The notes beneath the pieces were generated by a model, which was not told where the DNA came from, searched no databases, and saw nothing but the letters and a program-made list of their open reading frames with translations. A stretch of 64,000 nucleotides of DNA from Dehalococcoidia bacterium (GTDB lineage: Bacteria; Chloroflexota; Dehalococcoidia; Bin125). Made by a program: the position numbers and the translations under genes. The number at the start of each line of letters is the position of its first letter. Position 1 is the stretch's first letter. Positions 15,619 through 25,383 of this stretch are shown here, piece after piece. The stretch covers positions 640,001 through 704,000 of the forward strand of contig CAXXRD010000002.1 of assembly GCA_963663895.2 (NCBI GenBank), written 5' to 3'.

Positions 15619-18564
15619 ATGACTCTCGTCCAAGAGAGCGATGCCGCGAAGGTACTGCAAGAATTCGGCGGCGACCCGCAGAGTGCGGAAAGCCTAGCGG
15701 CGTTCTTGGGATTTGATCCGATCTCGAGCCCGCAGGATCTGCTGGCCGGGCAGCTCACCGGAGACCTAAAGCACTTCTTCGCACGTCAGGACGACAGGTT
15801 CGGCGTCCACCAGTTGTACAAAGTGGGAGCGTGCGCCGCAGCCCCCGCAACGGTCGGCTTCTACATCGCGGTTCTCGCTGATTGGGGGCACCGCTCTTCG
15901 GATCGGGACCGCCCGCGCCGTCGCATCGCGCGTGCCCTCGTCGAGTACACGCCGGACCGCCGATCGCTGGCCTTGCTCGTGCCGCCAGCTGCGGACGGCC
16001 GTCGCGAGGCGGAACTCGTGTTTCCGCGAACTCAGGCGGACGCCTCCAGCGGGGCCGTAACCAGCATCCGCGCTCATCTGGATCTCGACGCCCCCACGCG
16101 CTTCCACCGGGACCTGTTGCGCGGTCTGCGCATTCCCGCCGAAGCGATCCTTCTTGAGGTATCCCGGCGCTGGCAGTCGCAGTTCAGCATTGAGCGCGTC
16201 ACCACCAAGTTCTACCAGGAGTACGCCGCCGTCCGAGACCGCATGGCCTCGGCCTTCCTCTCACGCAACCAAGAACACCCCGTAGTCAAAGAGTTCGACC
16301 AAGACGACGCGCGCGCTTGGGCGACCCGGCAGATGGGGCGAGTGCTGTTTCTCTGGTTCCTGCAAGCCAAGCGCTGGCTCGGGAAGCCCGGCGGACAGGG
16401 CTCGGCAACCTACCTGCTGGATCTATGGGGCCAGCGCGCTAGCACGGCGGCGGATGAATACTACCGCGACATCCTCGTCCCGTTGTTCTTCGACGCCATG
16501 GCCACCGGTAGCAGCAGCCGCGGCGAGGATCCGATCCTGGGCTTTGTTCCCTACCTCAACGGCGGCCTGTTCCGGCGAAACGCGCTGGAGGACCGCGTGG
16601 ACGACGCCGGCCCGATCTCGCTGCCGGACGAGGTGTTCGACCCGGCAACCGACGACTCACTGCTCGGCCTGCTCTCTCGCTACCGCTTCACCACGCGCGA
16701 ATCCACGCCGGACGACCAGTCCGTGGACCCGGACCCGGAGCTGCTGGGTCGCGTCTTCGAGAATCTCTATCAGGGCGACGAGCGTCACAACACCGGCACC
16801 TACTACACCCCGCGAGAGATCGTCCACTTCATGTGCCGCGAGGCTTTGGACGGCTACCTGCGCGACAGCACCGGCGTGGACCAGGGAACGCTCGATTCCC
16901 TGCGCGGGGAAGCCTTCGGATCCAGGGACGAAAGTTCAGCCGTCAGCCAGCATCCGGTGGATGATCTCATCGACGCCCTCGAAACCGTCCGCATTTGCGA
17001 CCCCGCCGTCGGCTCCGGCGCCTTCCTCTTGGGGAGTATCCAAGAGATGGTCGCGCTGCGGCGGGGCATCCTCTTTTCTCAAAGCGGCTACGTCGAGCCT
17101 GCAGAGCTCTACCGGATCGTGAGCGAATGGAAGCGGCGCATCATCAAGAACAGCCTGTACGGGGTGGACATCAATCCCGAGGCCGTCGAGATCTGCCACC
17201 TGCGGCTCTGGCTCTCCATGGTGCTGGACATGGACGAGCCTCCCGATGCTCCGTCGGACTGGGCGCTCCCCAACCTGGACTTTCAGATCGTTGCGGGCGA
17301 CTCGTTGGTGGACCGGGTCGCCGGCATCACCTTCAAGGAGTCTTGGCCGCCGCCGACAGATCTGCAGTTGGAGATGGGATTGCAGATAAAGCTTCGGCGG
17401 CTGGAAACGAACATCGCCCGGCGGAAGCAGGAGTTCGGGAGCACGCACCGCAATCCCAAACGTCTCCGGGATCTGCGTGACCTGATCGCAAGGGACCAAC
17501 GCGAGATCATCCGCTTGCACCTAGAGGAGGCTCAGGCCAAGGCAGAGCGTGAAGCTCTGACCAAGGCCGTCCGGCCTGGCAAAGCCGCGCTGCGGAAGGC
17601 CGATAGCTTCATTGACCGCATCCGCTCCTTGTTGGAGGAGATGGACGCGCAGGACTTCGCCCTGGTTCAGAAACCCTTCCTCTGGCCGATCGCCTTTCCT
17701 GATGTCCTGCGGGCAGGCGACCCCAATGCCGGGTTCGATATCGTCCTAGCTAACCCGCCGTATGTGCGGATGGAGAAGATTGATAACGAAGATGAACTGG
17801 CCTACGGCGAAGCCTTCCCGCAGGTCAGTGCTTCAAGGGCGGACCTTCTCGTCTATTTCTACGCCCGCGCCCTGCAGATACTCCGGCCCGGCGGCTGGCT
17901 GGCGTTCATCACCAGCAATAAGTTCATGCGGGCCGGTTACGGCGCCGGAATCCGTGAGCATCTGCCCGCTGCGCTTCGCATCCGGCACGTGATCGATTTC
18001 GGCGACCTGCCGCTCTTCGAGGCGAACGGCAAACCGGTGGCCGCCTATCCCAGCGTGGTGGTCGGAAGCCGCTCGAACACGACGCAAGACCATGCTCTCA
18101 GCGTCGCGGACCTGACGCATCCCATCCGCTCGAACCTCTCCAAGGATGGCCGGAAAGTGAATCCGGAGAACGTCCGCAGCGTCCTGGAAGACCTGAATGG
18201 CTTGCTCTCGCGGGCGGCTACGCCAGATTTCCCCCAAGTGATGCTGAAGAACGAGGGCTGGATCTTGGAAGATCCCGCCCTGATCCGTCTCTTCAACCGG
18301 CTGATGAATCAAGGCACGCCACTGGGTGAGTTCGTGAAAGGACGTATTTACTACGGAGTCAAGACTGGCCTGAACGCTGCCTTCGTCATCGATCAAGCCA
18401 AACGCGACGAACTTGTCTCCGAGGACCCGCACAGCGCGGAGATCATCAAGCCGTGGCTGCGGGGCAAGGACATCAAGCGCTGGAGGGCAGAATCTCCAGG
18501 GTTATACGTGATATTCACAAATCGCGGAGTGGAGATCGACCGTTATCCAGCAATCCAAGGGTAG
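15619..18564 (+). pseudogene. Eco57I-like N6-adenine DNA methyltransferase, 5' part (interrupted by IS1595)
   Basis: LNGGLF, YYTP, DPAVGSGAF (motif I), NPPY (motif IV); the TAG stop at 18562-18564 lies inside the IS left end. Confidence 0.9.
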
Positions 18565-18582
18565 TTATAGACAATAGTAGCA
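18560..18582 (+). repeat. Left terminal inverted repeat of the IS1595 element
   Basis: Exact reverse complement of 21109-21131. Confidence 0.95.
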
Positions 18583-18619
18583 CTCCTATGGTACTATAAG
18601 TACGTAAAGGGGGTGCGTA

Positions 18620-19552
18620 ATGGCCGGTGGACCGGGGCGATCGGAGCGGGAAGGGCTGACGCTGGCGGAGCTGTTCAAGCGGTTCCCCGACGATGCGAAG
18701 GCAGAGGCATGGTTCGTAGCAGGGCGCTGGTCAGATGGCCCGATCTGCCCGCACTGTGAGTCCGACACGATCAAGATCGGCCCGAAGCATCCGACGATGC
18801 CCTACCGCTGCCGTGCCTGCAAGAAGTACTTCAGCGTCAAGATGGGGACCGTGATGGAGGGGTCGAACCTCGGCTACCAGACGTGGGCCATTGCGATTTA
18901 CCGCATGACGACCAGTCTGCGCGGCGTCTCCAGCATGCAGCTTCACCGCGATCTGGGGATCTCCCAGAAGGCGGCTTGGCACTTGGCCCACCGCATCCGG
19001 CAGGCGTTCGGCACGCCAGCGGAACCGATGGCCGGCCCGGTCGAAGTGGATGAGACCTACATCGGCGGACTGGAAGGCAACAAGCACGAATCCAAGCGCC
19101 AGCACCGGGGCCATGATGGCAAAGTCGCGGTCATTGGCGCGAAGGACCGGGCGACCGGGAAGGTGCGAGCGGAAGTGCTCGGCAAGGCGGAAGCGCCCCG
19201 CATGCGGGAGTTCGTGCGGCGGCAGGCGGCTCCGAAAGCGTCGGTCTACTCGGACGGGCATGGAGCCTACACGTCGCTGGAAGGAGAGTTCCGCCACCGC
19301 GCGGTCCAGCATGCGGCGGGAACCTACGTCATCTTCGATACGCACACGAACGGGATCGAGGGGTTCTGGTCGCAACTCAAGCGCGGCTACCACGGAACCT
19401 ACACGCATTGGAGCGCGAAGCACACGCACCGCTACCTGGATGAGTTCACAGGCCGCTACAACGCCCGGAGCGCAGACACCGTGGACCAGATGGCGGGCAT
19501 CGCCAAGGGGATGCAGGGGAAGCGGCTCCGATACCGAGAACTCGTGGCTTAA
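18620..19552 (+). CDS. IS1595-family DDE transposase
   Basis: CPHC/CRAC Zn ribbon, VEVDETYIGG, SDG, TNGIEGFWS, YLDEF. Confidence 0.95.
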   Translation: MAGGPGRSEREGLTLAELFKRFPDDAKAEAWFVAGRWSDGPICPHCESDTIKIGPKHPTMPYRCRACKKYFSVKMGTVMEGSNLGYQTWAIAIYRMTTSLRGVSSMQLHRDLGISQKAAWHLAHRIRQAFGTPAEPMAGPVEVDETYIGGLEGNKHESKRQHRGHDGKVAVIGAKDRATGKVRAEVLGKAEAPRMREFVRRQAAPKASVYSDGHGAYTSLEGEFRHRAVQHAAGTYVIFDTHTNGIEGFWSQLKRGYHGTYTHWSAKHTHRYLDEFTGRYNARSADTVDQMAGIAKGMQGKRLRYRELVA

Positions 19553-20364
19553 TCTGTCGGCAGACCAGACGGTAGTTGCAGGATGCGATCGAGGTGGGGC
19601 AGCGCGTCGGGAAAGCGATCCTGGAAGTACGCGTGCGCCCGCGTTGGCAGCCAGACCTCGTGGAAGTACCGGCGAAAATCCGCCAAGTGCTCAATCGGGT
19701 AGAGTCGCGCCTGCACGGTGGGGCGTCGCCCGTCAATGAACTCGTGGTCATAGGTGGGGAACTGGTTGGGGTCGATGCCTCTTCGCCGGAGGAAATCGGA
19801 GAACATGCGGCCCGTCGAAATGTCCGGCATCATCCTGTCTGGCGGAATCACCCCCACGTCTTCCAAAGGCGCGAGCAGGTGTAGGTAAATCTCATTCAGC
19901 ATCGAGAAATGGGTGTGGGGAATCTTCGCCCGATTCTTCAAGAATCGCTGAATGTGGACGGGCATGTAAGCCCGGAAGTTGCCCGACATCCAGTCGTAGA
20001 CCCACCGGTTTACCTTGACTGCGAACTCGGGCGAGAGCCATTGGCCGAGGTGCGTAGCAACTTGGGGGTGAACCCAAGTACCCTGCAACTGTGGCTCCCC
20101 TCCTTTGATGATCTGCACGAGTTCCGATATGGGAATTCCCATATCGGCTGAAAGTTCATCAAGGTACGCCTTCGTTTGGCTGTTTCGGTGGTAGTCCGCA
20201 AATAACTTCCCTGCTTCCTGGCAGAGCCTCGTAGCGTTGATGTAACCGTCGCGCGGTCGCTGAGGAACGAGGCCGCCATTGGCCGGGTGTTCGATGATGA
20301 GGGGGAGCTGCTGAAACTCCATGGGTTTTGTGAGAGCGCGTTGTTTCTTGTTCATCTCTGGCAT
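19549..20364 (-). CDS. KilA-N domain protein with BstA-like C-terminus (IS passenger)
   Basis: DGYINATRLC...QGTWVHP...WLSPEFAVKV (KilA-N); C-terminal PDISTG and YP...FRRYF...WLP recall BstA. Confidence 0.8.
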   Translation of the reverse strand: MPEMNKKQRALTKPMEFQQLPLIIEHPANGGLVPQRPRDGYINATRLCQEAGKLFADYHRNSQTKAYLDELSADMGIPISELVQIIKGGEPQLQGTWVHPQVATHLGQWLSPEFAVKVNRWVYDWMSGNFRAYMPVHIQRFLKNRAKIPHTHFSMLNEIYLHLLAPLEDVGVIPPDRMMPDISTGRMFSDFLRRRGIDPNQFPTYDHEFIDGRRPTVQARLYPIEHLADFRRYFHEVWLPTRAHAYFQDRFPDALPHLDRILQLPSGLPTD

Positions 20365-20522
20365 CCCTGCCCGTATGCCACGCTCTCTATACCGCAGATG
20401 CCCCGGCTGCTGTGGTCCGAACGGGGAAAAGTCACGATTTCTCGTAGACGGATTGTGTATTGAGGGGAAAATGTGCAGGTTTGGAGACGCGAGCAGAACG
20501 GGGGCAGGCTATCCGAACCCCG

Positions 20523-20618
20523 TTACTTCTTCGGCTTCCGTACGCCGCCGCCCTTCACGATCGCCTGCATCACCTGCTGGGGCGTCGCCTTGATGCGGAG
20601 GTCTTTGATCTTCGGCAT
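20523..20618 (-). CDS. 31-aa basic micro-ORF (IS passenger)
   Basis: Own translation MPKIKDLRIKATPQQVMQAIVKGGGVRKPKK*; GAGAG upstream; co-oriented with the other cargo. Confidence 0.45.
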   Translation of the reverse strand: MPKIKDLRIKATPQQVMQAIVKGGGVRKPKK

Positions 20619-20650
20619 GGCAACTCTCAGGTTACTACCAGAGGCGCGCG

Positions 20651-21049
20651 TCAGAAACAGTCAGCACCACGGAAGCGGACCGACCCAGTGAAAGGATCGA
20701 GCCGCACAGAGCAGGTGATGACCTGGTCATCACCATCGAAGAGGAATGATTCTTCCGCGCAGCGAGATGCTGGACGATCGCAGCGCACCGCCACGACGAA
20801 CTCAAAGATATCGTCGTCTGTCTCGCGGTAGCGCCAGGTCTCTTGCTGATCAGAGCAATCGGTCTCAGGGGACGCCAGAGTAACGTCCTCCTGGACGTTT
20901 TCGAGGACAAGCCCGACAGCAGCACGGCAGCCATCAGCGGCGGTGAAGTCATCGAAGAGGACAGAGTCACCACCACCGCAGGCCAAGACTGTGACGCTAC
21001 CTAGACAGGCGATCACCCCGAGCAGCGCTACTTTAATTCGCTGAGACAT
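20651..21049 (-). CDS. Cys-rich putative lipoprotein (IS passenger)
   Basis: Signal peptide ending VLA-C, six further Cys, acidic mature part. Confidence 0.65.
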   Translation of the reverse strand: MSQRIKVALLGVIACLGSVTVLACGGGDSVLFDDFTAADGCRAAVGLVLENVQEDVTLASPETDCSDQQETWRYRETDDDIFEFVVAVRCDRPASRCAEESFLFDGDDQVITCSVRLDPFTGSVRFRGADCF

Positions 21050-21108
21050 AGGTATCCCCTTACCGCGCGAGCGGGCGGCACACTACGGGATCACCTGTAG
21101 GCGGTCAA

Positions 21109-21131
21109 TGCTACTATTGTCTATAACTACC
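21109..21131 (-). repeat. Right terminal inverted repeat of the IS1595 element
   Basis: TGCTACTATTGTCTATAACTACC. Confidence 0.95.
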
Positions 21132-21139
21132 AATCCAAG

Positions 21140-21651
21140 AGCATCTCCGATGGTTCCGAAGCGGCCTCGAAGAGCGGGCAACTGCCAATCTTCATCCTTG
21201 GTACGAGCTTCAGCAGCCGCAGGAAGGAATCTACGAGGAATTCACTCTTCCCAAGATCATCTGGCCTGACATAGCTCGCGAGGCACGGTTCGCTTCCGAC
21301 ACTAGCGGAAGCTACCTCGGTAACACAGCTTACGCGATGCCCGCAGACAGGACTTGGTTGTTGTCAGTCATGAACACTGACTTGATCGAATTCATACTGT
21401 GTCAGATGACCAATTCACTACGTGGTGGCTTTATACGATTTATTTATCAATATATTATCCATACGCCTATTGTAGCTCCTGACACAGCCATCACGTACCA
21501 CCTTGAATCCATTGCCCAAGCAGGACAAGTTGGAGAGTCCGTGGATAACGACGAACTAAATAACGTCGTGTACGACCTTTATGGACTGTCCCACAGCGAT
21601 GTGACAGTCGTGAAGGATTGGTTCGAGCGGCGGAGCCTGGAGAAAGATTGA
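21140..21651 (+). pseudogene. 3' part of the interrupted methyltransferase (TaqI-like specificity domain)
   Basis: Rejoined reading ...YPAIQ|EHLRWF...WYELQQPQ...PKIIWPDI...GNTAY continues in frame into ORF 21337-21651. Confidence 0.9.
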
Positions 21652-21666
21652 CGGTACGGACCGAAC

Positions 21667-24600
21667 ATGGCTACTGAAACTACCGACATCCTCCCTATAG
21701 CCAACGAGTCCACCATCGGCTCCATGCGGGAGCATCTTGCCGGCGCCCTGGCCCGCGTCGGCCCCCGAGAGATCCGCATCGCGACCGCCTACCTAACTCC
21801 CGACGGCTTCCTCGAACTGAAGAGTGGGATGCAAGAGGCCGCGAGCGTGCGACTGCTGTTGGGCGAGCGGCCCTTCCTCAACCGCCGCGGGCCCGGGGAC
21901 ATCCTCGCCCGGCCCGGCGAACAGGACGAGCTTCACGGTCCGGCGGAGTCGGTGAACTGGTACACCTTCTTGGAGGGAGGCTACCCCTGGCTGCTGCTCA
22001 CCCACGAAGAGCGGCGGGATCTGCTGCAGAGCGGCATGACGCCAGATGCCAGCGCCTTCAACCTCTTGGCCTGGGAGCGGGTCACCGCCCTGGCCAGCTT
22101 CCTGCGCAGGGACAACGTGGAGATCAGGCGTTTCCTGGGGGCCGATGCGGGCAAGGTCCTGCCGGAGGAAGTGCTCGACTACCGCTCTCCCAGGAACCGG
22201 CTCCACGCCAAGGCCTATCTTTTCTCGGGCGAGACGAAACGCTATGCCGCCGTCGGCTCCAGCAACCTGACCAAAAGCGGGCTGTCCGAGAACTCGGAGC
22301 TCAATCTCGCCTCCTACGACCGCGAACTCGTCGCCCAACTCGAAGGCTGGTTCGACGACAAGTGGGAGCAGGGGCAGGACTGCAAGGCGCAGTTCATCCA
22401 GCGTCTGGAAGAGTGCGTGCTGTTCGGCCGGCGCTACACGCCCTGGCAGGTCATGCTCAAGTCCCTGCACGCCGCCTACGGCCGCTTCCTGGAGCTGGGC
22501 CTGTCCGAGGAGGTCATGGGCAGGCTGGCCGGCTTTCAGCAGCTGGCCGTGCAGAGCTGCGTTGTCCTCCTCAAGCGCCACTGGGGAGCCATGCTGTGCG
22601 ACTCGGTCGGCCTGGGCAAGACCTATGAGGGGTTGGGGGTTCTGCGGGAGTTCGCCAACCAGCGCGGCGAGGACCCGCAGCAGGCGAGCCGCCTTACGCG
22701 CGCCCTGATCGTCTGTCCCGCACAGCTTCGGGACAATTGGAACACGGACAAGCTGGCGGATTGGGGAATCAGCGCCAGCACCGTCACCATGGAATCACTG
22801 CCCAGCCTGACGGACATCGAGAGCGAGCCCGCGCCGCTTCAACGGCAGCGGCTCCGAACCACGCTGAAACGCTACCAGCATCAATACGACATCATCCTGG
22901 TCGACGAATCCCACAACTTCCGCAATCCCCGTACCAAGCGCTACCGCGCGCTCATGGAGATCATCCGCGGCGGCAAGCCCGATAAGCGTGTGCTCCTAAT
23001 GACCGCCACGCCGATCAACAACTCGATCTGGGACCTCTACCACCAGCTCATGCTCATCACCAGAGGCGACGACACCTGGTACGCGGGGCGCGGGCCGGTA
23101 CCCAACCTGAAAACGGCCTTCCAGGCCATTGAGCAGGGCGAGTCCGGCGCCGGCCTGCTGGACGCGATGATGCTTTCCTTGGTGCGCCGAACCCGCCACG
23201 ACATCCGCGCAATGCAGGAGGCGGGGGAGGAGATGGAGGTCGACGGCCAACCGCTGCGCTTCCCGGAGCATGAGATACCGAAGGCGGTGGACTACAGCCT
23301 GCAGGGACTGTACGGCAACATCTACCTCGACATCATCGACGCCATCGAGCATCTCAAATTCGCGGTCTATCGCCTTGACGAGTACGGAGTAGCGACCGGA
23401 GAAGGGGAGACGAGCGCGCGGCTGAGACAGCGCAACGCCAACTTCGTCGGCATCATGCGCACCATCCTGCTAAAGCGCATGGAAAGCTCCCTGGCGGCGA
23501 TCACCTCCACGGTGCAGAGCTTGGTGGACTACCTCAACCTGTTCCTGTCCCGGCTGGAGCAGGGCTACGTGCTCACCCCCAAGCAGGCCTACAAGCTGCG
23601 CGCCGTCTTGGGAGGTTCGCTGCCGGACCACGACCAGGATCTGGATGATCTGGACTTCGGGTCTGTGGCGGCGCTGCGGCAACAGATCGAAGCGCCGGAA
23701 GATCCAGACCGCAAGGCCAACTTGCAAGCGGACGTGGAGTCAGACCGCGACCGGCTCCAAATGCTTCTCACCCGGCTCAAGTGGCTGGAAAAGATGCTGG
23801 CCGAGCAAGGCGACCCCAAGGCCCAGGCCGTACGCCAACTGCTCGAAACGCTCCCCAAAGAGGACGCCCGTGGAAACCCCACCAAGGTGGCCTTGTTCAC
23901 CACCTACAAGGACACCGCCCAGCACCTGTTCCGGCTGCTCGGAGGAGACACGGAAACCCTGGAAGAAGACTACCGCGTGCTCAGCAACCTGAAGGACGAA
24001 CGCTGGATGTCGCTGCTTACGGGCGACGACAACCAGAATCGCAGACGCGCCATTTTGGAGCGCTTCGCGCCCCTCGCAACGCACCGCGAGACCGAACCGC
24101 TGGATGATCCGGCCTTGCTGAAAAAGATCGAGCCGTTGCGGGCCCAGAGCATCGAACTGCTGATAGCGACAGACGTGCTCTCGGAAGGCCAGAATCTCCA
24201 GGACGCCCAGTTCCTCATCAACTACGACCTGCCCTGGAATCCAGTGCGCCTGATCCAGCGCGCCGGGCGTATCGACCGCCTGCTTTCCCCTCACGACAAG
24301 GTGTACATCTACAACCTGATGCCCGAAGACGGCTTGGAAGACTTACTTAGCCTCGTCCAGAACCTCTCGAAGAAGATCGAAGCGATAGATGATGCGGTGG
24401 CGCTGGACGCTTCGGTACTCGGCGAACAGATAGAGGCGCGGGAACTGGACAAAATCATGAAGCTGCGCGCCGGCGGCGCCCAAGCCGAACAGGTCTACCG
24501 CGAGGAAGAGCGGGACCAGGGGCTGGACGAAGGTACGGAGTTGCTCAACAAGTACTTCGATCTAATGAAGGAATTCGCCACCGAGGACATCCGCGACATC

Positions 24601-25251
24601 CCCAACGGCGTCTACAGCGTGAAAAGTGGGGAGGCAACCGGCGTGTACGTCATGCTGAAGATGCCCGAGGAAGCATCCGGCGAAGTGTTCTGGAGATTCT
24701 ATCCTTCGGGCAACGTGGCCCAGCCGGTCACGTCACCCAACGATGTGCTCTCAATCGTGGAGGCCAGTAGAAAAGAGAATCGGTACAAAATCCCTGAGGA
24801 CGAAAATCCCTTCAAGTACCTAAAGGACCCGCTACAAGCCGCAGTGGACCAGATCGGCAGCGCGTACTTGGACGCCATCGCTGCGGTGACGCCTGACAAC
24901 TTCACCAGAAAGATTAGGCAGTTCCTCAATCGCGACGACTTGTTGGAGTCGGACCGGGAATTGTTTGATTTCTTCAGCGGGTGGGTGGAGCTGCCCCTGC
25001 CCTCGGATGCGATCAAGCGCGTGGGGATGCAGGACCCGGTAAGGATCGTGAACCAGCTCGCGCCTAACCGCGCGCCGCTCGACCAAGTGATCCCGGCCCT
25101 GACTGCGCTCAGGGAAGCCATCCAAGCCGAGGGGCTCGACCGTCCGCTCACACGGCCGGACACGAAACAGCCATCGGCCGAGGACTTGGAGTTGGTGGCG
25201 TGGGAACTCATAGTCGGTCCGGAAGGGCTCTCACAACCTACTAACAAGTAG
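21667..25251 (+). CDS. PLD-nuclease + SNF2-like helicase fusion
   Basis: HAK...GSSNL PLD motif; DSVGLGKT, DESH, TATP, SEGQNLQ, QRAGRIDR helicase motifs. Confidence 0.9.
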   Translation: MATETTDILPIANESTIGSMREHLAGALARVGPREIRIATAYLTPDGFLELKSGMQEAASVRLLLGERPFLNRRGPGDILARPGEQDELHGPAESVNWYTFLEGGYPWLLLTHEERRDLLQSGMTPDASAFNLLAWERVTALASFLRRDNVEIRRFLGADAGKVLPEEVLDYRSPRNRLHAKAYLFSGETKRYAAVGSSNLTKSGLSENSELNLASYDRELVAQLEGWFDDKWEQGQDCKAQFIQRLEECVLFGRRYTPWQVMLKSLHAAYGRFLELGLSEEVMGRLAGFQQLAVQSCVVLLKRHWGAMLCDSVGLGKTYEGLGVLREFANQRGEDPQQASRLTRALIVCPAQLRDNWNTDKLADWGISASTVTMESLPSLTDIESEPAPLQRQRLRTTLKRYQHQYDIILVDESHNFRNPRTKRYRALMEIIRGGKPDKRVLLMTATPINNSIWDLYHQLMLITRGDDTWYAGRGPVPNLKTAFQAIEQGESGAGLLDAMMLSLVRRTRHDIRAMQEAGEEMEVDGQPLRFPEHEIPKAVDYSLQGLYGNIYLDIIDAIEHLKFAVYRLDEYGVATGEGETSARLRQRNANFVGIMRTILLKRMESSLAAITSTVQSLVDYLNLFLSRLEQGYVLTPKQAYKLRAVLGGSLPDHDQDLDDLDFGSVAALRQQIEAPEDPDRKANLQADVESDRDRLQMLLTRLKWLEKMLAEQGDPKAQAVRQLLETLPKEDARGNPTKVALFTTYKDTAQHLFRLLGGDTETLEEDYRVLSNLKDERWMSLLTGDDNQNRRRAILERFAPLATHRETEPLDDPALLKKIEPLRAQSIELLIATDVLSEGQNLQDAQFLINYDLPWNPVRLIQRAGRIDRLLSPHDKVYIYNLMPEDGLEDLLSLVQNLSKKIEAIDDAVALDASVLGEQIEARELDKIMKLRAGGAQAEQVYREEERDQGLDEGTELLNKYFDLMKEFATEDIRDIPNGVYSVKSGEATGVYVMLKMPEEASGEVFWRFYPSGNVAQPVTSPNDVLSIVEASRKENRYKIPEDENPFKYLKDPLQAAVDQIGSAYLDAIAAVTPDNFTRKIRQFLNRDDLLESDRELFDFFSGWVELPLPSDAIKRVGMQDPVRIVNQLAPNRAPLDQVIPALTALREAIQAEGLDRPLTRPDTKQPSAEDLELVAWELIVGPEGLSQPTNK

Positions 25252-25285
25252 GGGCTCTTCCATGAGGCTGCCGCACAGCAAAGAG

Positions 25286-25383
25286 TGGCGGGAGCGCATG
25301 GGAGTCGAACCCACCCAGGACGACGCGGGCCGCCCCGCAACGGTTTTGAAGACCGCGAGGGCCACCGGGCCCCCTCCGCTCCC
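25286..25383 (-). tRNA. selC: tRNA-Sec (UCA)
   Basis: 98 nt; CT-TCA-AA anticodon loop, 6-bp D stem with 4-nt loop, 9-bp variable arm, TTCGACT T loop, G discriminator + CCA. Confidence 0.95.

Follow-up and report, generated by a model that had tools for sequence, protein, structure and literature searches.

Can abortive-infection immunity of the BstA type travel without a prophage? The question is raised by an insertion sequence that lies inside a restriction-modification (RM) gene of a Dehalococcoidia bacterium and carries a gene with a KilA-N domain, which the initial annotation took for a BstA-like candidate anti-phage gene. The stretch of DNA analysed here, termed the window, comprises 64,000 nucleotides (GCA_963663895.2, contig CAXXRD010000002.1, positions 640,001 to 704,000). 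Within it, inverted ends and a target duplication delimit an IS1595 element of 2572 bp (18560-21131) with the following features:

18552..18559, no strand: target site duplication, left copy, 8 bp, AATCCAAG
18560..18582, plus strand: left terminal inverted repeat, 23 bp
18568..18597, plus strand: sigma-70-like promoter candidate for the transposase, 9/12 positions; weak, 1 found against 0.8 expected in shuffles
18620..19552, plus strand: IS1595-family DDE transposase, 310 aa (NCBIfam and Pfam)
19549..20364, minus strand: cargo ORF with KilA-N and BstA_C, 271 aa, convergent with the transposase
20523..20618, minus strand: 31-aa ORF with no Pfam match
20651..21049, minus strand: 132-aa lipoprotein-like ORF, second cargo, with a signal-peptide-and-Cys pattern in its sequence
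21080..21108, minus strand: possible inward cargo promoter (TTGACC, 17 nt, TAGTGT), read by eye; 8/12 positions, below the scan threshold
21109..21131, minus strand: right terminal inverted repeat, 23 bp
21132..21139, no strand: target site duplication, right copy, 8 bp, AATCCAAG

The terminal inverted repeats are complementary at 23/23 positions, and their sequence matched twice in the window with up to 3 mismatches, a count of at least 2 being reached in 0/100 shuffles. The element is thus present as a single copy within the window, its ends are intact and the empty site is clean; the ends resemble the ISNwi pattern. The transposase scored far above the cut-off of 75 in NCBIfam transpos_IS1595 (NF033547; E 2.1e-51, 174.9 bits), and both the Pfam DDE domain (PF12762) and the zinc ribbon (PF12760; residues C43/C46/C64/C67) exceeded their cut-offs. 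Its catalytic triad we take to be D144/D212/E247. With transposase, inverted ends, duplication and passenger genes between the ends all in place, the assignment to the IS1595 transporter elements is borne out, as is the convergent arrangement with a 4-bp overlap, since the stop codons of transposase and cargo share TTAA at 19549-19552. The span originally given, 19549..20520, rightly contained the cargo ORF but omitted the two further ORFs inside the element. The larger of these, which has several cysteines, found no match in Pfam, PADLOC, NCBIfam or PHROG, 0/12 candidates were scored, and its Atlas matches reached 0.80 at most. Small secreted or membrane ORFs are present in several related elements too. 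No minus-strand candidate above the threshold appeared in the promoter scan of the element.

Two domains make up the cargo protein:

19984..20280, minus strand: KilA-N DNA-binding domain, residues 29-127 (Pfam E 6.7e-25)
19612..19965, minus strand: BstA C-terminal domain, residues 134-251 (PADLOC BstA E 9.2e-16)

The KilA-N domain is as clear as initially described, and in the predicted structure of the cargo (pLDDT 87) this part superimposed on Mbp1 (1bm8) with Z 9.9 and rmsd 2.8 over 88 aligned residues. All of the C-terminal motifs quoted earlier were found in the translation. PHROG 6287, 'BstA abortive infection system', which also contains the BstA of phage BTP1, covers cargo residues 15-250 (E 3e-52), and PF26567 (BstA_C) together with PF04383 was found in 120/120 of the listed cargo homologues (1846/2090 candidates scored). 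Direct comparison of the C-terminal domain with BTP1 BstA gave 26% identity over 134 aa (E 1e-10), HHalign matched it to BTP1 BstA 168-298 with a probability of 98.4, and the cargo family profile, run against 324 BTP1 ORFs, had BstA as its sole match (E 5.5e-18). The proposed kinship of the C-terminal domain with BstA has therefore withstood the profile comparisons (PADLOC E 9.2e-16, HHalign 98.4), and judged by these the domain is genuinely homologous to that of BstA.

This kinship does not extend to the whole protein. In the comparison, which among the tested BstA proteins covered that of BTP1, full-length similarity was not found and only the C-terminal domain aligned; the profile of the cargo N-domain stayed unaligned against this single-sequence template (HHalign probability 0.3), and BTP1 BstA itself had no Pfam match at E 0.01. 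The PADLOC BstA model gave 55.8 bits for the cargo vs 412.5 for BTP1 and was covered only at positions 149-270 of 292. In a ranking of C-domains by similarity to that of BTP1, several fusions to Rha, Bro-N and AntA came ahead of the window protein, which was 48th among 108; a quick tree from few columns placed BTP1 in a starred group of 6 rows that does not include the window C-domain. The 26% identity of the C-domain lies below the 42-48% that Owen et al. give for the tested homologues (PMC8585504). By these comparisons the cargo is best described as a BstA_C-domain protein from a subfamily of putative function and is not a demonstrated BstA orthologue.

A profile search with the C-domain returned 664 representatives at E 0.001. 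Among 99 relatives, chosen by eye from the longer ones of the 150 listed out of these 664 and with their domains counted by hand, the N-terminal domain was Bro-N in 30, KilA-N in 23, Rha in 18, AntA in 14, ORF6N in 2 and another in 2, while 10 had none; the four antirepressor-type domains other than KilA-N account for 64/99, and all five together for 87/99. On the C-domain tree the N-domain labels change 45 times, against a minimum of 6. Since the C-domain is a shuffled module that sits mostly on antirepressor-type domains, homology by itself does not establish an anti-phage function. Domain shuffling of KilA-N/Bro-N proteins was reportedly described by Iyer and colleagues in 2002. BstA_C was also seen within three very long proteins (P0201, P0203 and P0142, 1230-1770 aa), two of them without a Pfam match and one with BstA_C behind a primase-associated region.

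Structure searches assigned neither a fold nor an active site to the C-domain. Modelled alone (pLDDT 92), it had its best fold match in VIA (Z 4.4, rmsd 4.1, 89 aligned), and Z of at least 5 was reached by 0/48161 chains, which does not make the fold a new one; comparison of the model with viral structures yielded no match at E 0.001, and no solved structure related to the C-domain by sequence was found. That the C-domain is itself a second KilA-N, arisen by internal duplication, was rejected (HHalign probability 1.2). Residues D181, H207, Y222-P223 and W238 of the protein are invariant.

Against this background we consider it probable that the cargo is a BstA-like, replication-blocking defence gene, predicted from its domains and neighbourhoods, which IS1595 spreads without a prophage or an aba site. 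The domain shuffling, together with the best Atlas look-alike of the C-domain, the C-terminus of the P22 antirepressor (score 0.89, a lead only), speaks for a different role, in which the cargo would be an antirepressor-type DNA-binding regulator of the KilA-N/Bro-N/Rha/AntA class that shares a shuffled C-module with BstA, tunes transposase expression or interferes with further mobile elements, and does not protect against phages. We hold that role to be rather unlikely.

One scan of GTDB genomes produced 187 pattern matches, of which 152 were confirmed and the best 80 kept; the query derives from close relatives, so that frequencies among these 80 loci are not family-wide. Collecting related elements with their cargo, as had been proposed, showed the BstA-like gene to be recurrent: in 13/80 loci, from 12 genomes, it lies inside a complete IS1595 element with transposase, inverted ends and 8-bp duplication, the last being perfect in 11/13. 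Applied to the other loci of the 80, the loose rule used here yielded 8 weak matches, 0 with a perfect duplication. In 20/80 loci the strand of the gene also holds an IS1595 transposase or its remnant, whose end is at most 300 bp upstream; with L013, where it is divergent, 21/80 have one beside the gene or between the same ends. Two loci of one genome (L044 and L045) hold one and the same element at two sites, with 2 differences in 2258 bp and flanks that are 28-29% alike, which is direct evidence that cargo-laden elements have moved.

In 12/13 complete related elements the cargo is the next gene downstream of the transposase and shares its strand, in many cases with an overlap at the transposase stop codon; this placement would suit a regulator of transposition. 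The convergent layout of the window occurred in 0/13; at L004, L029 and L051 a convergent transposase ends 1-6 kb away. Orientation to the transposase thus varies between co-directional, divergent and convergent, which argues against such a regulator, as does the fact that most IS1595 elements need no such gene, none being annotated at two plasmid IS1595 loci. In co-directional elements the cargo has an in-frame N-terminal extension just past the transposase stop, a short helical leader some 30 aa long (L002, L011, L012, L014, L015, L034, L038, L040, L044, L064, L073 and L078). By eye the 31-aa ORF of the window resembles this leader in detached form, but a profile of the 12 leaders did not place it among the best 12 of 1358 window ORFs, and the idea was dropped.

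Kinship and divergence of the cargo were compared with those of the transposase. In a quick tree of the cargo, from which L024, L051 and BTP1 were left out, the window protein belongs to a starred set of 17 rows with 13 from Chloroflexota, 1 from Binatota and 2 from Nitrospirota beside the window, and 7 of the 17 lie in complete elements. A single origin of IS carriage was rejected, since the starred branches of this tree force at least 8 changes. Identity to the window was higher for the cargo (49-72%) than for the transposase (26-56%) in 15/15 pairs, partly as a result of locus selection. In all 15 pairs cargo pN (0.20-0.36) was far below pS (0.69-0.99), with synonymous sites saturated, a pattern by which the gene is judged to be under purifying selection. 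The distance matrices of cargo and transposase agreed weakly (rho 0.31; 24/2000 permutations). The data point to a conserved, selected gene that has been exchanged among IS1595 backbones.

Several of the collected loci have a make-up of their own. L013:1482-7791 is a 6.3-kb IS1595 element with perfect ends that resembles a miniature defence island, where the BstA-like gene is accompanied by HTH, DNA methyltransferase and SocA/Panacea genes, an ORF that looks like HNH, and others. L052:4954-6990 combines asymmetric ends with a perfect duplication, and another IS1595-type left end follows directly. L015:7033-8234 contains SocA/DarG-like and proteasome-subunit-like genes as further IS cargo. At L008:5111-6810 and L007:4598-9274 the BstA-like gene lies between inverted repeats without an IS1595 transposase; that of L008 is seemingly frameshifted and located downstream of a superinfection-immunity gene.

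The gene also occupies moron and defence-hotspot positions where there is no IS, and this again is not what a transposition regulator would lead one to expect. A relative 54.5% identical lies directly 3' of cI in Proteus phage vB_BPM-V3, and downstream of the cI repressor is the position that Owen et al. describe for BstA (PMC8585504). In an E. coli phage a relative sits between O/DnaC and Q, opposed to the lytic strand; a 54% identical prophage relative from E. coli, URC10292.1, has close matches in 137/5426 complete E. coli genomes. On a Vibrio plasmid the gene is part of a cassette-like array and adjoins Hhe and PDC-S21, and on a Klebsiella plasmid it is found near SIR2, RadC and a GNAT pair. 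Of the 59 non-IS loci, 55 had upstream ORFs, 105 in all: a cI-like gene was present in only 2/55 of these loci (L019 and L046), a few other loci had phage genes (tail, Q, integrase), and most ORFs were without a family. These addresses lend modest support to a role in defence.

A DNA methyltransferase, SocA/Panacea, a proteasome-like protein and HicA were recognised among the fellow passengers in the related elements; the majority had no family. The toxin-antitoxin parts among them, and the block that BstA imposes on a phage-derived plasmid replicon according to PMC8585504, would fit a cargo that restricts other replicons (plasmids or phagemid-like) or serves as an addiction or toxic module stabilising the IS, in place of defence against lytic phages. 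We regard this as improbable, as no antitoxin partner gene is common to the elements and in one of them (L017) the BstA-like gene is the only cargo.

If the cargo is indeed a replication-blocking defence gene, a promoter close to the right end of the element would drive its constitutive expression. The KilA-N domain of the product would bind phage DNA on entry or during replication, and phage replication would be blocked by the BstA_C domain, with abortive infection as the outcome, as in BstA. The element would then persist through the protection that the cargo gives to the host population. For BstA itself, PMC8585504 describes a block of phage DNA replication that causes abortive infection, with the mechanism left open. 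An IS has no lytic cycle, so no aba self-immunity site would be needed.

The initial annotation had offered a weak candidate for such a site. The 8-bp direct repeat does exist, with GGGGAAAA at 20423-20430 and 20464-20471, 59-107 bp upstream of the cargo gene and wholly outside it, but its role as a cis site was rejected on account of chance-level frequency and wrong position. A direct repeat of at least 8 bp arose in 211/2000 shuffles of the 158-bp intergenic stretch and in 148/405 window tiles of the same size, and GGGGAAAA was found upstream of the gene in 0/80 related loci. In BTP1 the aba extends over 63 bp, positions -29 to +34, and direct repeats at its termini bracket the start codon (PMC8585504), and our repeat scan recovered this repeat as a positive control. 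In the window a 7-mer repeat spans the cargo start; a 6-mer repeat of this kind was present in 367/533 tiles. As aba sites are homologue-specific, the lack of an aba is not provable here.

The insertion site lies in a defence island, whose features are:

15619..18559, plus strand: 5' part of the interrupted type IIG (Eco57I-like) RM gene; its frame stops at 18564 after 981 aa
21140..21651, plus strand: severed 3' end of this RM gene, some 170 codons from its C-terminal/specificity region (PADLOC)
21667..25251, plus strand: gene for a PLD-SNF2 helicase that partners the RM-like gene (PADLOC, NCBIfam and Pfam)
25286..25383, minus strand: tRNA-Sec, at whose 3' end the lower-GC defence island ends

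The 5' part matched PADLOC REase_MTase_IIG (E 5.9e-87) and Pfam Eco57I (E 1e-33), and the severed 3' part matched the same PADLOC model at profile positions 993-1143 of 1148 (E 5.7e-08); of this putative type IIG gene the MTase and C-terminal parts were thus matched, while the nuclease part (residues 1-220) had no match. When the element and one duplication were removed, the reconstructed empty site read through 1150 stop-free codons with the insertion at codon 980. The element has thus severed the last 170 codons of a type IIG RM-like gene, in keeping with the insertion into a defence gene noted at the outset, and from the truncation RM function has presumably been lost. The best PADLOC match of the helicase was C3a139 (HKD+Snf2). 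The island (RM-like gene and PLD-SNF2 helicase, window 15619-25383) has about 63% GC vs 70% in its flanks, and an att-like repeat of the tRNA-Sec end, sought at the other island border, gave 1 match, the tRNA itself. The insertion region is the AT-richest of the island, the 3' part of the RM gene having 50% GC vs 70% in the host flanks. That selection favoured an exchange of RM for Abi immunity here, the adaptive swap suggested earlier, is very unlikely: the insertion does disrupt a defence gene within a defence island, but an AT-rich target preference (A/T at 82/104 bases, by hand count, in the duplications of the 13 related elements) accounts for the landing site equally well, and the stop-free empty-site frame is consistent with a recent event that preceded any action of selection. 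The insertion is probably collateral.

IS1595 elements carrying passenger genes are said to have been treated by Siguier in 2009. What is new is that a BstA-related cargo recurs on IS1595 elements across several unrelated bacteria. In the freely accessible literature searched, no report of a pairing of BstA with IS1595 was found; the main text of Owen et al. (PMC8585504) does not contain the words transposase or IS1595, and its supplementary text lacks IS1595, transposase, KilA and Chloroflex, while tables and figures may still list IS neighbours.

Up to now BstA has been seen as a gene of prophages that comes together with a self-immunity site. An IS-borne branch of BstA that crosses phyla would, if real, mean that defence genes move on the smallest of mobile elements, and aba would be predicted to be dispensable off prophages. 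Going further, IS1595 passenger elements might in general ferry single-gene cargo of the anti-phage and toxin-antitoxin kinds between phyla, the aba-free BstA branch included, with BstA_C as a portable replication-blocking effector that stays functional when its DNA-binding head (KilA-N, Bro-N, Rha, AntA) is exchanged; this we put forward only tentatively, as a possibility that we would not yet expect to hold. Were the effector portable in this way, hundreds of genes now called 'antirepressor' would have to be counted among defence genes, and there would be a handle on the BstA mechanism. The natural domain swaps allow one to ask which half senses and which blocks replication.

With BTP1 BstA, the cargo shares the two-domain, single-gene form, the homologous PF26567 BstA_C and an N-domain of KilA-N type, and some members of its subfamily likewise follow cI in phages. 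It differs from BTP1 BstA in its canonical Pfam KilA-N, in an N-terminal part that does not align, the 26% identity being confined to the C-domain, in a location inside an IS within an RM gene and not in a prophage downstream of a repressor, in the absence of a supportable aba, and in the host lineages of its nearest relatives, namely Chloroflexota, Binatota and Nitrospirota. As 15/72 BstA homologues are prophage-independent according to Owen et al. 2021 (PMC8585504), a prophage location is typical of BstA, not strict.

The element resembles the IS1595 transporter IS (tISCpe8, MTnSag1/tISSag10; ISNwi and ISNha5 groups) in its Zn-ribbon DDE transposase, its passenger genes, inverted ends of about 25 bp starting with GG and an 8-bp duplication. 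Terminal inverted repeats with an 8-bp target duplication (PMC8101967) and the existence of IS1595 elements with passenger genes (PMC5704250, PMC8101967) are on record. Unlike the described IS1595 transporters, whose passengers in the literature searched are antibiotic-resistance genes, this one has for its passenger a candidate anti-phage gene that runs towards the transposase. With the modular KilA-N/Bro-N/Rha/AntA phage DNA-binding proteins, finally, the cargo has in common the class of N-domain and the shuffled C-module; unlike them, its subfamily occupies lysogen-expressed and defence-hotspot positions and not only lytic control regions.
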